Shown here: one piece after another, positions 52,104 through 59,946 of the stretch
Layout: each line of letters begins with the position of its first letter
How positions within the stretch are numbered: the stretch's first letter is position 1
Position numbers and translations under genes: made by a program
Origin: Bacteroidia bacterium
GTDB lineage: Bacteria > Bacteroidota > Bacteroidia > UBA8524
Assembly: GCA_964215915.1 (NCBI GenBank)
Contig: CAXPEB010000026.1
Coordinates: forward strand, 10,342 to 74,341
Direction: 5' to 3'
Length of the DNA: 64,000 nt
Notes under the pieces: model-generated
Database searches by the model: none
What the model was told of the DNA's origin: nothing
The model's input: only the letters and a program-made list of their open reading frames with translations

Positions 52104-52684
52104 GAACGCTTCAGTTGTTTGTAATACTGATTCTTATTTCTTCCTGCAAACAGAGGCAGGTTCCGGCTGGTGAATGGGTTGAGTACGTGCAATCGGAAGA
52201 GTCTGGTTTAAGGAAATCAGTTACTGTGGGAAAATGTCGAATGGATGTCCAGTATTACCCTGCCAGCTATTGGAAGGCTAAGTGTATACTGGAAGGCAAA
52301 GAGTATACTGGAGCCCAGGATTCTTTTGCTTTATTTAAAGTTTATTTCTCCAATCCGGAGAGAACAGGTGGACTTGCCCGGGCAATTGCTTCAGGAAAAG
52401 GAGAATATGTAAGAATCCTGGAATACCTTGATGGGGATGCCCGGTACGATTTCCTGTTCAAACAAGCTACCGATACTGCTCTTGCAGCAATGTACCACTA
52501 TGAGAGAACGTATGACCTCGTTCCGTTCGACTGTGTGAATGTGGCGTTTCCCTATTCGGAAGATTCGGAATCTCCGTTTATCCTCGAGTATCATGATAAT
52601 CTCTTTTGTTTCGGAATTCAGAAGTTCCGATTTGATAAAGAAACGATAAAACAAGTCAATCAAATAGAAGTAATACCGCAATGA
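52100..52684 (+). CDS. Lipoprotein of unknown function (194 aa)
   Basis: Lipobox LISSC. ATGA overlap with neighbours on both sides. Confidence 0.55.
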   Translation: MRTLQLFVILILISSCKQRQVPAGEWVEYVQSEESGLRKSVTVGKCRMDVQYYPASYWKAKCILEGKEYTGAQDSFALFKVYFSNPERTGGLARAIASGKGEYVRILEYLDGDARYDFLFKQATDTALAAMYHYERTYDLVPFDCVNVAFPYSEDSESPFILEYHDNLFCFGIQKFRFDKETIKQVNQIEVIPQ

Positions 52685-58600: not shown

Positions 58601-59946
58601 TGTGGTCTACCTGTCCGGATTGTAACAACAACGGGAATTCTTCCGGCGAAGGGACATACGAAGGCAGCGACGGATCCTATGCGGGCGGCACACCCATATG
58701 GACACCCGTTGAGGTGCCTAAGCCGGGCAATACCCAGGGTACTCTGCCAGGAGGAGTTAACCCGTATATCCTGGGCATTTATGGCAACTGGCGTCCCAAA
58801 AGGTCCTACATATACTACGACACCCGAAATGCCTACCATGCGCGTACTCAGAGCGAAGATGTTTCTGGAAACCTGAATTCCACCAATACGAGAATTGATG
58901 GCGAATACCAGGATTTCAGAATTTTCTGGAACCCTCCGGCCCTGAATGAAGTTAGCTGGACAAAGCCTCTTAGTCTGGGTACCAGCGGGAACCCCTGGAA
59001 ATGGAACTCCGTGTCGGATCAATATCACCCGAACGGGTATGAAGTCCAGACGCATGATGTAATCGGAATATTCAATTCGGCGTATTTCAGTCCGGTCAAT
59101 TACCAACCTTATTTCGTTGCCAACAATTCGAGCCTGAAAAATGCGGTAGGAGAGAATTTTGAGGATTATTGGGAATTCTATTTTGATGCGGATTGTAATG
59201 AATCCGGCGAGCTTACCTCCCTCAATATGGTGGGAATCGATGAAGAATTGCTGGCTAAACTCAAGCGTACCAGCTACCAGTGGAATCTCTGGACCGCCTT
59301 TACCCCATTCGCCTATGTGTCAGATGCAGAGGCTCATACCGGAGATAAGTCGCTTTACCTGACAAACTATGCACACCCCGGTGCAAGCCTCTATGATCTC
59401 GGCAATCAGGTTCCGGGTCAGCTGAAGCTGGAGGTCAAACTTCCCAATAATCTTACCCGGGTTAATTACAAAATATTTGAACCGGGTAATGAGGATATGA
59501 TCGATCGTTTCAATCCTGATCAGGAAGAATATGTGGTGAGTTTTTGGGTGAAACCCGGGTATTATGGAGCCAGCGTTGATTTTAAAGTGAGCAATGCCGT
59601 GGTTACCCCCATACTTCCTTTGATGGCGCAACCTATTGATGGCTGGTATAAAAAGTCCTATAAGGTGGTCTTCAATACCCCTCCCAATGGAGAAGCCGTA
59701 CTTACCTTCTCTACCAACAAGTACGTATACCTGGATGACTTCCGCATGCACCCCGTTCATGCACAGATGAAGACGTTCACCTACGACAAAAATCTGCTTC
59801 GTCTTACTTCCACACTCGATGAAAACAATTTTGCCACCTTCTATGAGTACGATTTGGAAGGGAATCTTGTCCGGGTAAAACGGGAAACCGAACGGGGAAT
59901 ATTTACCATTTCGGAAAACAGAAAGAATTTGAGAAAACGGCCCTGA
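52681..59946 (+). CDS. Giant (2,421-aa) secreted protein with N-terminal SpvB/TcB (Tc-toxin B-subunit) domain and C-terminal YD/RHS repeats
   Basis: Signal-peptide-like N-terminus (VLSAMALLGIAEQYLYPMQAYA). Residues about 37-140 (LTGGPSQPEVQSFEPIATTQMVDPFTGDFSYNIPLF...ISYHSG...GLGWNINPGAINRHLQGVPDDF..LIRY) match the SpvB/TcdB N-terminal domain consensus (GGGaikG.GekF..n..TGt.sl.iPl...LsYsS..gNG.fGlGW.l....I.R.T.kGvP.Y). C-terminal YD repeats (TFTYDKNLLRLTSTLDENNFATFYEYDLEGNLVRV). ATGA overlap with the upstream lipoprotein gene. Confidence 0.8.
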   Translation: MNVLTLFRKSWLTRVLSAMALLGIAEQYLYPMQAYALTGGPSQPEVQSFEPIATTQMVDPFTGDFSYNIPLFDVGGYPINISYHSGINMEQEASCVGLGWNINPGAINRHLQGVPDDFKGDLIRYEENFKPHVGVNTQFKFAAVDTGEKEIFGVEPGPFSNSKVFIKDLGNKFKYSVYEQAGVVDMDDIGLTLRFGIQYHNYRGVGYEVGFGDNSAIGEKWLKGFGVNYDISFNSFSGYDASAGLSYQFAAWKQTKDHVESKGMLGAGLGIGMNSRTGLRDITFNTFAYRAYEYCQENVVTREPSMKISGGKIYYESGEKSAIHRVGAESSGYNGGMSLLGAPPSFSPTSTSYTKSASYTFSYKTGLQLFGSYHHGTITASVDWYGLDKKVQDRQSFGTLYLKDVSANSNADQFALDYNQIGVKSLNKFTENLHQMNQTADFFTVSGQGTSGSFKPYLGSLGSFYQPRSENRSVPSGNVALEVGTGNFAKLGVNLKYIHRGAYSGKWREEYGNLASNSYNFTVGNGEADWEGVYFKNIGERIGVDEGYYEELGGETPTALAIVDNKCTDCPKPSTGISVRTYVTDKLSHDDNPTGNISRTKRAERNQFWSHLTAEEAEDFGLTKYVSDHAEPHHIGEITITGEDGRRYVYGQALYNTEHKEVTFNLADHANNLNCEPATFTYNTSSSGSNTPDNTLDNKKGKDHVFRSTQIPPYAHAYYLTAVLSVDYVDVDNNGPTPNDLGDYVLFEYESAMLDYQWRTPYSEEYNRANGFVGLLSNDFDDKASYVYGKKEVWYLTEVKSKNQRAVFIYDETGRKDAYEAEGENGGRGSRTLWKLDRIEVYTEHEGALYEPVFNPAPGGSPEDVLLKTVHFAYSYDLCPNIPNNIGTNTGTDHPLIPGTDQNINKGKLTLHKIWFTYQNSNLGEESPYLFQYSETNPAYEPADVDRWGNYKPNNCSGKYNSEFPYSLQDENLVHQYASAWHLTQIELPSGGKINIDYESDDYQYVQDRPAMQMLNILGYGKSAADYKSGQTPSANLYEGFAGGSERRANNFVFVSLPEPVYSNEEFRERYLKDNGKDNIEIYFKVKINLQNKFHPGDKKYEFIDGFATVEKVNETINAGVTSDPNVGWIALERVGLKEGNLFKIHPIAKTAWQFIRLQMPYLAFPASDAVSDPDDFPITNQLIGGLLSLAPEMLSSIRGFNGKMLSERFAQETIPSESVIRLYSASGQKYGGGSRVKTIRFSDEWDQFDENNESASYITRYEYSLEDGSGSSGVASYEPIIGGEENPFKVPVHYEEKMNPLALANHIYDLEPYCEFLYPAAVVGYSRVKISAVLPQDTEEHSSYTITRHADGYTVNEFYTAKDYPTRSMNTTLSKSLKGTSGSSGWANKLTSLFGISTQGVTASQGFQIVLNDMHGKLKSTTVYNSHTDKPVRKTEFVYKDKAEHLNSSIENNSASGSKELDNEVVVLNPDGTYETKMIGVDIEAFVDVNESREITHIPGLDINFEFVQSGIPLLFTLPLPKYRRIENYTLTASLTKVITKSGILIKTRMTDNGHTVETENVAFDAKTGSVLLSKTNNEFEDPVYSMSYPAHWAYDGMGQAYQNTGLEFEFEIVDGIGYANEEQGQFLRKGDEIILPGVDKRYWIFHIEQFDDNGTTKYKFGLLDAAGRIKYNDTYTGKVIRSGHRNMQGLSVGQVVTKSNPLVSGTFGGSSQFSNVLAATAMEYDENWQTFMGFHEIGYECTGTSIPSDCSEGIDFRQNRYRLRNKAVGGLCLGTTAPFGNPAEICNSAECPKATFKRDRSHVNDPANKKIPDESDPTFDKSKTRPAGIGTLMTYLETPGMRFEDWANTGNDWQNQSAPWLEEGVLTASADNSVVRINGFPSCDQKIWKVGYASDQTSTPPYGLFRYYKESGSMFCAEMFTFQYSTDVEILKDEVQVSNMVLYFISVENVSGTDYNYYKVLFPMYPDIVAYMWSTCPDCNNNGNSSGEGTYEGSDGSYAGGTPIWTPVEVPKPGNTQGTLPGGVNPYILGIYGNWRPKRSYIYYDTRNAYHARTQSEDVSGNLNSTNTRIDGEYQDFRIFWNPPALNEVSWTKPLSLGTSGNPWKWNSVSDQYHPNGYEVQTHDVIGIFNSAYFSPVNYQPYFVANNSSLKNAVGENFEDYWEFYFDADCNESGELTSLNMVGIDEELLAKLKRTSYQWNLWTAFTPFAYVSDAEAHTGDKSLYLTNYAHPGASLYDLGNQVPGQLKLEVKLPNNLTRVNYKIFEPGNEDMIDRFNPDQEEYVVSFWVKPGYYGASVDFKVSNAVVTPILPLMAQPIDGWYKKSYKVVFNTPPNGEAVLTFSTNKYVYLDDFRMHPVHAQMKTFTYDKNLLRLTSTLDENNFATFYEYDLEGNLVRVKRETERGIFTISENRKNLRKRP

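Follow-up and report, generated by a model that had tools for sequence, protein, structure and literature searches.

A giant signal-peptide protein with a split SpvB/TcaC-like domain, encoded upstream of an RHS toxin in a Bacteroidia bacterium

Among the weapons with which bacteria compete, rearrangement hotspot (RHS) polymorphic toxins are widespread. To our knowledge, their delivery is understood mainly for the Rhs effectors linked to type VI secretion systems (T6SS) and for the Tc toxins. In Tc toxins, an SpvB/TcaC domain starts the TcB shell, and the TcB gene is located upstream of TcC. Bacteroidota encode very many RHS toxins of the DUF6443 type that bear signal peptides, and we know of no account, nor did the literature searches find one, of how these toxins cross the outer membrane or reach a target. 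The window analyzed here, a stretch of 64,000 nucleotides from a Bacteroidia bacterium (GenBank assembly GCA_964215915.1, contig CAXPEB010000026.1, positions 10,342 to 74,341 of the forward strand), encodes a protein of 2,421 amino acids (aa), hereafter called the giant, in a single open reading frame (ORF) at 52681-59946 (+), exactly where an earlier note made from the sequence had placed it. The giant is probably a helper for the delivery of adjacent RHS toxins, and we assign a probability of roughly 60% to the reading that it serves as the large accessory, or 'B-like', subunit in a two-partner RHS toxin system specific to Bacteroidota. With the conserved envelope genes that accompany it, the giant is a concrete candidate for the missing delivery machinery of DUF6443 toxins.

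The locus resembles Tc loci in two respects: the giant begins with an SpvB/TcaC-type domain, as do the TcB proteins TcdB2, YenB and SepB, although in the giant this likeness is at the level of remote homology, and its gene lies upstream of one encoding an RHS protein that bears both Rhs core and toxic C-terminus, like TcB before TcC. The differences, however, are extensive. The giant is ~1,000 aa longer than TcB, possesses a Sec signal peptide, has its SpvB-like domain split by ~490 aa, and carries a carbohydrate-binding module (CBM) and a variable insert; it lacks the propeller gate, the TcdB mid domains, a sequence-detectable RHS array and a TcA gene. Its partner, a signal-peptide-bearing DUF6443 toxin of ~3,000 aa, is by its architecture no TccC homolog, and a small gene for a secreted protein lies between the two. 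The giant is thus not a member of the TcB family, which is the sense in which the earlier note had called it 'TcB-like', but neither does the evidence make the system categorically new. That it might still be a canonical, merely elongated TcB of an insecticidal ABC (Tc) complex, as its position beside an RHS protein with an Rhs core could suggest, is highly improbable and contradicted by the domain and context tests. Neither Pfam nor the predicted fold revealed an FG-GAP/VCBS beta-propeller, which had been proposed for the middle of the protein; Pfam searches matched neither TcdB mid-N nor mid-C (PF12256, PF12255) and gave no significant SpvB match; no TcA-associated Pfam family was found on the operon proteins, and related loci contain the same gene set without TcA. 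Moreover, giant and toxin both carry signal peptides, and the published genome-wide survey of Tc loci does not mention Bacteroidetes.

Another parallel is the 'TcdB/TcaC export pathway' (Zhang et al., 2012; PMC3482391), in which the toxin polypeptide itself bears the signal peptide together with an SpvB domain and a propeller of integrin-like type, and for which several phyla were reported, Bacteroidetes among them. The giant shares with it the succession of signal peptide and SpvB-type domain and the linkage to an RHS polymorphic toxin. It differs in that the SpvB-like domain is split and resides on a separate giant, which has no propeller and is accompanied by envelope genes, and in that the DUF6443 toxin has its own signal peptide. 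Bacterial teneurin-like proteins (PMC13018210) were also considered as a match and rejected, as they form a distinct, rare family. A literature search for 'DUF6443' found no paper containing the term.

The features of the giant are given below with its residues in brackets; short types are shorter relatives of the giant encoded on plasmids, and model confidence is expressed as predicted local distance difference test (pLDDT).

52681-52788 (+), Sec-type signal peptide (aa 1-36), with predicted cleavage between AYA and LTGGP and a layout kept in homologs
52789-53085 (+), first part of the SpvB/TcaC-like domain (aa 37-135), from hhalign to the SpvB family; model pLDDT 67-91
53086-54552 (+), insertion of ~490 aa in the SpvB-like domain (aa 136-624), absent from short types
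53248-53880 (+), amphipathic meander of long beta-hairpins (aa ~190-400), from the predicted structure
54553-55710 (+), second part of the SpvB-like domain and a highly conserved beta-rich core (aa 625-1010), colinear with residues ~130-464 of short types
55711-56343 (+), conserved alpha/beta region (aa 1011-1221), with helices at model residues 1112-1172
56344-57900 (+), Rhs-shell-like region of long beta-hairpins (aa 1222-1740), from the predicted fold
57928-58680 (+), lineage-variable Cys-rich insert (aa ~1750-2000), uncovered by homologs of ~35% identity and of low model confidence
58681-59400 (+), conserved beta domain (aa 2001-2240), kept across the family
59419-59763 (+), CBM-type jelly-roll domain (aa ~2247-2361), from the predicted fold of the aa 1222-2421 model
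59764-59916 (+), two terminal YD/RHS repeats (aa ~2362-2412), sub-threshold for Pfam RHS_repeat in the giant and passing in the homologous module of relatives

The leader consists of a basic n-region and a hydrophobic core followed by AYA and, behind the predicted cleavage site, LTGGPSQPE. The ATG of the giant overlaps the stop codon of the upstream gene (ATGA), and this start position is kept in homologs. Of 39 aligned homologs, 37 repeat the n/h/c layout of the giant and have a site of AxA (or GxG) type just before the near-invariant LTGGPSQPEVQSFEP. For this reason Sec export of the giant by a signal peptide, which the earlier note had predicted, is well supported, on a call that combines conservation across homologs with a heuristic rule of thumb.

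Detection of the SpvB/TcaC-type head required profile-profile comparison. Pfam SpvB did not match any of six segments of the giant scanned even at E<=10, the full-length protein had no match to Pfam or NCBIfam at E<=0.01, and sequence searches of the PDB yielded nothing with either the single giant sequence or the 39-member family profile. With the N-domain profile the sole PDB chain retrieved was the mosquito salivary protein SGS1 (PDB 8fjp), a Tc/Rhs-like giant matching on the equivalent ...G...fsfPLvDl....lPi.l.... motif with an E of 0.23, which is not significant; SGS1 is eukaryotic and has another overall architecture. When 25 N-domains of the family were compared singly with Pfam, SpvB was the most recurrent match, although a weak one (8/25, best E 0.042), and DUF6531 matched three of the 25 (best E 7e-6). 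In contrast to these standard searches, which yielded no significant SpvB or RHS match for the giant, an outcome that by the earlier note's own measure would have refuted its claim, the deeper comparisons support an SpvB-like domain. An SpvB family profile was made from an alignment of 30 proteins found with Salmonella SpvB as query, and hhalign aligned the N-domain profile of the giant family to it with 75% and E 2.4e-5 (giant aa 47-117 to SpvB ~27-99). The family profile of SpvB was needed for this result, since hhalign found nothing with one single SpvB sequence, and regions of the giant beyond the N-domain had no direct hhalign match to SpvB.

Short-type relatives bridge the distance. They match the SpvB profile over 172 columns (SpvB 28-212; hhalign 94.3%, E 1e-7), and after removal of residues ~136-624 the profile of the giant family is colinear with them over 361 columns (99.1%, E 1e-18). 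Compared directly with SpvB, the spliced profile extends the alignment as well (62%, E 7.5e-5, 99 columns). Because the colinearity with the short types appears only once these residues are taken out, the giant is, as judged from sequence comparison, the bearer of a genuine but remote SpvB/TcaC-type N-terminal domain that is split by an insertion of ~490 residues. The stretch behind the insertion (aa 625-1010) contains the densest invariant columns of the family and was modelled with pLDDT 85-92. Compared with the N-domain of Salmonella SpvB (PDB 6p0x; PF03534), the giant shares the motif core ...TG..s..iPL....P.l.lsY.S.....G.GW.l....I.R...GvP, and the first ~70-100 positions align directly, but identity is only 13%, the Pfam model stays below any threshold, and the ADP-ribosyltransferase domain is absent. 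The agreement with SpvB had been described as 'nearly motif for motif', which is overstated; what stands is homology at the remote or fold level. With these results the SpvB/TcaC-type domain also includes a split form, which escapes standard domain libraries; this is also why ~4,500 clusters (at 50% identity) are labelled only 'hypothetical'.

The short types are Bacteroidota plasmid proteins of 1,100-1,275 aa annotated as 'RHS repeat domain-containing', for example WP_264694611.1 (Hymenobacter sp. YIM 151858-1) and WP_284686895.1 (Chondrinema litorale). They are similar to the giant in its N-domain (32% identity, E 5e-10) and in its C-terminal CBM/YD module (36%, E 1e-7), and lack the insertion, the alpha/beta region, the Rhs-like region of aa 1222-1740 and the domain of aa 2000-2240. 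Short types, too, are encoded directly upstream of DUF6443 toxins, in loci without the OmpH, lipoprotein and 379-aa genes described below. As only these two ends and the toxin linkage are kept, the SpvB-like head and the CBM/YD tail suggest themselves as the toxin-related core of the protein.

For the remainder of the giant we relied on models of its two halves, both of moderate confidence (pLDDT 70.6 and 72.4; predicted template modelling score, pTM, 0.68 and 0.59, the second value of each pair belonging to aa 1222-2421). Fold matches were assigned to residues by way of secondary structure, model confidence and sequence comparison, which makes the mapping an inferred one. Rhs and teneurin shells were the best predicted-fold matches. 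By hhalign, the core regions of the giant did not resemble the partner toxin's RHS region except, weakly, in the terminal YD repeats; since the central cores lack such sequence similarity, the label 'Rhs-like' refers to the predicted fold alone. Family conservation spans aa 1-1740 and 2000-2421, with ~1750-2000 variable, and the alpha/beta region of aa 1011-1221 is kept in all long-type members and missing in the short types. The CBM-type fold is accompanied by a weak CBM_4_9 match in the homolog from Aureibacter. At the C-terminus, the YD repeats claimed from the sequence are genuine in the last ~50 residues; no further RHS repeats are detectable by sequence. Pfam RHS_repeat matches the giant at aa 2368-2400 with E 0.072 and 14 bits, below the cut-off of 22 bits, which the homologous C-terminal module of relatives passes with 39.3 and 27.5 bits.

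The terminal YD repeats and the Rhs-like predicted fold could also be taken to mean that the giant itself is a self-contained RHS/YD polymorphic toxin. We consider this hardly conceivable, as it is contradicted by what was found: Pfam and NCBIfam searches identified neither an Rhs core (TIGR03696) nor a toxin domain in the giant, a sequence-detectable RHS repeat array is missing, and its C-terminal 420 aa are conserved across the family and not polymorphic. Compared with T6SS Rhs effectors and teneurin YD shells (8qjb, 8h8a, 8cp6, 8uxt, 8fia), the giant lacks an N-terminus of PAAR or VgrG-linked type as well as an Rhs core and an encapsulated toxin, and its RHS repeats are recognizable by sequence only at the extreme C-terminus.

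The toxin, in contrast, is encoded downstream, and was overlooked by the earlier note, as was the huge Bacteroidota family to which the giant belongs. Two genes follow the giant:

59946-60617 (+), 223-aa signal-peptide protein between giant and toxin, translationally coupled at both ends (TGATG, ATGA)
60614-64000 (+), RHS polymorphic toxin of DUF6443 type (Pfam), of which the N-terminal 1,128 aa are encoded before it runs off the window

The toxin gene starts 670 bases downstream of the giant and encodes a signal peptide. Its match to Pfam DUF6443 (E 7e-6, 26.7 bits) is just under the cut-off of 27.8 bits, and ORF listings miss it because there is no stop codon inside the window; on a Logan contig with an identical giant, the toxin has at least 2,929 aa. 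In the complete partners of Chitinophaga japonensis, Longitalea luteola and a metagenome-assembled genome (MAG), DUF6443 is accompanied by a LamG-type domain and RHS repeats. The Rhs-associated core (TIGR03696) occupies aa ~2430-2650, and behind it a variable tip of ~260 aa is located; in Longitalea this tip is a Tox-HNH-HHH nuclease.

Neighbor statistics were obtained for the 80 best-scoring related loci (referred to by labels beginning with L) from plus-strand ORFs and iterated hidden Markov models (HMMs), and each gene was scored only where the flank sufficed. Wherever at least 4 kb of downstream sequence were available, a DUF6443 toxin follows on the same strand (63/63 loci), although the giants of these loci are only 31-36% identical, and the spacing between giant and toxin is nearly fixed. 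The linkage recurs in annotated plasmids of cultured strains. The partner on the Aureibacter plasmid bears the annotation of an RHS repeat-associated core domain protein, and behind it lies a small ORF; on a Hymenobacter plasmid, a small ORF and an orphan Rhs-core fragment come after the toxin. Both arrangements are the typical layout of polymorphic toxin loci. The toxins paired with short types at L010 (15578-22729) and L011 (15252-21200) have DUF6443 preceded by long arrays of leucine-rich repeats and by PA14 and SUEL-lectin domains, so that, given the LamG-type domain in partners of long-type giants, toxin N-termini vary with the type of partner. Toxin and giant are directly adjacent (8-15 bp), with no small gene between them, at L071, L072, L075 and L079.

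This linkage bears on the idea that the giant is an independent surface adhesin or glycan binder unrelated to the toxin, the gene order merely reflecting shared regulation or mobility. Its CBM-type domain and variable Cys-rich insert would fit such a function, as would the several copies per genome in some MAGs and the location of plasmid copies near integrases. Nevertheless, we regard it as quite improbable, given the invariable same-strand linkage and near-fixed spacing across such divergent giants, the overlapping start and stop codons, and the fact that the short types keep the toxin linkage; furthermore, the N-domain superfamily is otherwise tied to RHS and Tc toxins.

The B-like subunit reading is inferred from the combination of Sec export of all components, a TcB-type head, an Rhs-like predicted fold without core or toxin, a glycan-binding-type module, YD hairpins and an invariant, translationally coupled linkage to a complete RHS polymorphic toxin. 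By analogy to TcB and TcC, giant and RHS toxin might, once exported by Sec, come together in the envelope or at the cell surface. With its SpvB-like head and terminal YD hairpins, the giant would contact or extend the RHS shell of the toxin, and the CBM and the variable Cys-rich insert could bind glycans on the target-cell surface. The chaperone and lipoprotein encoded in the operon may aid assembly or passage across the outer membrane. Thus the giant would serve for docking and for binding to the target, and possibly for membrane passage, with the variable C-terminal domain of the partner as the putative payload. Since the payload would be such a variable domain, which is an HNH nuclease in one complete partner, competing bacteria are the most likely target.

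Several observations weigh against this proposal. Both half models are of only moderate confidence and were made without the partner, and the central regions have no RHS-repeat sequence similarity, so that the shell is a matter of predicted fold alone. A TcB-like half-shell may be unneeded, because the length of DUF6443 toxins suffices for a complete RHS cocoon of their own. The toxin in the window is incomplete, and its Rhs core and tip are predicted from homologs. Finally, in the plasmid relative L009 a protein with a type IX secretion system (T9SS) sorting domain follows in place of a DUF6443 toxin, the sole exception seen.

The ~490-aa insertion invites another explanation, namely that the giant is mainly a platform for export or translocation, its insertion forming a monomeric or oligomeric beta-barrel in the outer membrane of the producer or in the target membrane; membrane integration of this barrel would be served by the OmpH/Skp-like chaperone and the lipoprotein, and the rest of the giant would be displayed on the surface. 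The insertion is present in 80/80 long-type giants. Within it, residues ~190-400 are predicted to form ten long antiparallel strands in a meander, one face of which has a family-averaged Kyte-Doolittle hydropathy of ~+2 and the other of ~-1.4, and the top Foldseek matches of this meander in the PDB are secretins and outer-membrane barrels. The OmpH-like gene in the operon and the envelope targeting of every operon product point in the same direction. On the other hand, the confidence of the model in the hairpin region is low (pLDDT 45-65), and amphipathic strands also arise where a sheet packs on a core. The Foldseek matches are weak (best E 7e-4, template modelling score, TM, <0.1), and matches with such low TM were not used as evidence of homology. 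An association of the insertion with the OmpH gene was considered and rejected: the insertion occurs in 40/40 loci with detected OmpH and in 40/40 loci without. As it is kept regardless of OmpH detection, correlation with the chaperone lends no support to the platform, and at L009 an OmpH gene is present and the meander is not detectable. The predicted meander, also the one lead for the earlier note's idea that the additional sequence could stand in for TcA, is treated as a lead towards a membrane-inserting module and not as a result. A platform as the main function appears unlikely to us, but it is compatible with the B-like reading and does not exclude it. Also doubtful is a combination of the two, in which the giant, like TcB, would dock to or extend the RHS cocoon of the toxin by means of the split head and the YD hairpins at its end, and would also provide a TcA- or secretin-like beta-barrel, formed by the insertion, in a previously undescribed, Sec-dependent and Bacteroidota-specific apparatus for RHS delivery. 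The barrel, possibly oligomeric, would carry the toxin across the outer membrane of the producer or into the target, assisted by the Skp-like chaperone, the lipoprotein and the small secreted proteins.

The giant is part of a tightly packed plus-strand operon, in which its stop codon and the start codon of the gene behind it overlap (TGATG at 59944-59948). Upstream of the giant are located:

48085-50448 (+), 787-aa protein with GTG start, signal peptide, coiled coil and an outer-membrane-barrel-like C-terminus (...LGYAF), from the translation
50438-51577 (+), 379-aa secreted protein, with a homolog upstream in 63/68 related loci
51564-52103 (+), OmpH/Skp-like protein of 179 aa (Pfam OmpH, E 8e-5, below the cut-off)
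52100-52684 (+), predicted lipoprotein of 194 aa with an LISSC lipobox, whose stop overlaps the start of the giant

Like the giant, the remaining operon products all carry signal peptides or lipoboxes. The 787-aa protein has a long charged coiled-coil stretch (aa ~210-350), and its C-terminal half, which ends in ...TTLGYAF, looks by sequence like an outer-membrane beta-barrel; it had no Pfam or PDB sequence match. By sequence it is kept upstream in only 1/58 related loci, where large positional analogues occur. The 379-aa protein likewise matched no family and no PDB sequence. Homologs of the OmpH-like protein, annotated as OmpH in L001, L002, L006 and L009, are encoded upstream in 38/72 loci. 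A homolog of the lipoprotein is found directly upstream in 56 of 75 loci, with a lipobox-like motif in 40/59. Between giant and toxin, a signal-peptide ORF of 218-307 aa is present in 61/65 loci, and 55 of these 61 fall into one BLAST cluster. The ~1.3 kb upstream of the operon (46782-48084) contain no ORF of more than ~105 aa, and may represent a promoter/regulatory region or a decayed gene.

Relatives of the giant are abundant. The homology search returned more than 3,858 matches, all unnamed and none with a precomputed Pfam domain, which stem from Bacteroidota genomes and metagenomes and mostly have 1,800-2,500 aa. A HMMER scan of 1.84 billion representatives of 50%-identity clusters yielded 4,480 matches at E<=1e-3 and 2,479 at E<=1e-30, and in a scan of one genome per species relatives were found in at least 569 species-level genomes. 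A few of the MAGs bearing relatives are labelled as phyla other than Bacteroidota, likely as a consequence of mis-binning. Cultured carriers include Chitinophaga japonensis (DSM 13484), C. niastensis (DSM 24859), Longitalea luteola and Ferruginibacter sp. (HRS2-29), and in Chitinophaga and Ferruginibacter the system is thus available in genetically approachable organisms.

Large plasmids of cultured Cytophagales carry the system as well (L006, Aureibacter tunicatorum pAT2; L009, L010, L011, Hymenobacter plasmids). These plasmid copies adjoin tyrosine recombinases, Fic proteins and conjugation genes; their location on large plasmids beside recombinases and conjugation genes suggests that the system is mobile. 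Some genomes contain two or three separate loci with giant and toxin, as in one Flavobacteriales MAG (L071/L072/L079) and in the pairs L014 and L037, L056 and L070, and L022 and L084; at L079 a second DUF6443-type protein is also encoded upstream of the giant. A distant relative at L002 (JGI 3300075144 contig, 5.2 Mb; 1-5444, 10001-18017) has a split giant, consisting of a 1,813-aa protein without the C-terminal module and a separate 691-aa PKD-domain protein that ends in this module. Immediately upstream of that operon lies a set resembling a type II secretion system (T2SS) or type IV pilus (T2SSF, A24 prepilin peptidase, T2SSE and secretin).

Elsewhere in the window, two T9SS cargo proteins with Por_Secre_tail (PF18962) C-termini are encoded at 37477-39675 (-) and 39915-42086 (-), one with fn3 and endonuclease/exonuclease/phosphatase domains and the other with a lamin-tail domain. 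The host is thereby confirmed as a member of the Bacteroidota with type IX secretion. Unlike these two products, the giant and its partner toxin have no Por_Secre_tail domain, and Pfam and NCBIfam searches detected no T9SS sorting domain (PF18962, TIGR04183 or TIGR04131) on the giant. An Rfam search over the whole window gave no matches. Two overlapping ORFs of 156 and 126 aa at 45947-46417 (-) and 46401-46781 (-) match the C-terminal and, weakly, the N-terminal parts of S-adenosylmethionine (SAM)-methyltransferase models, respectively; the region 45947-46781 (-) thus has the appearance of a single methyltransferase gene that a frameshift has divided, as a pseudogene or by sequencing error.

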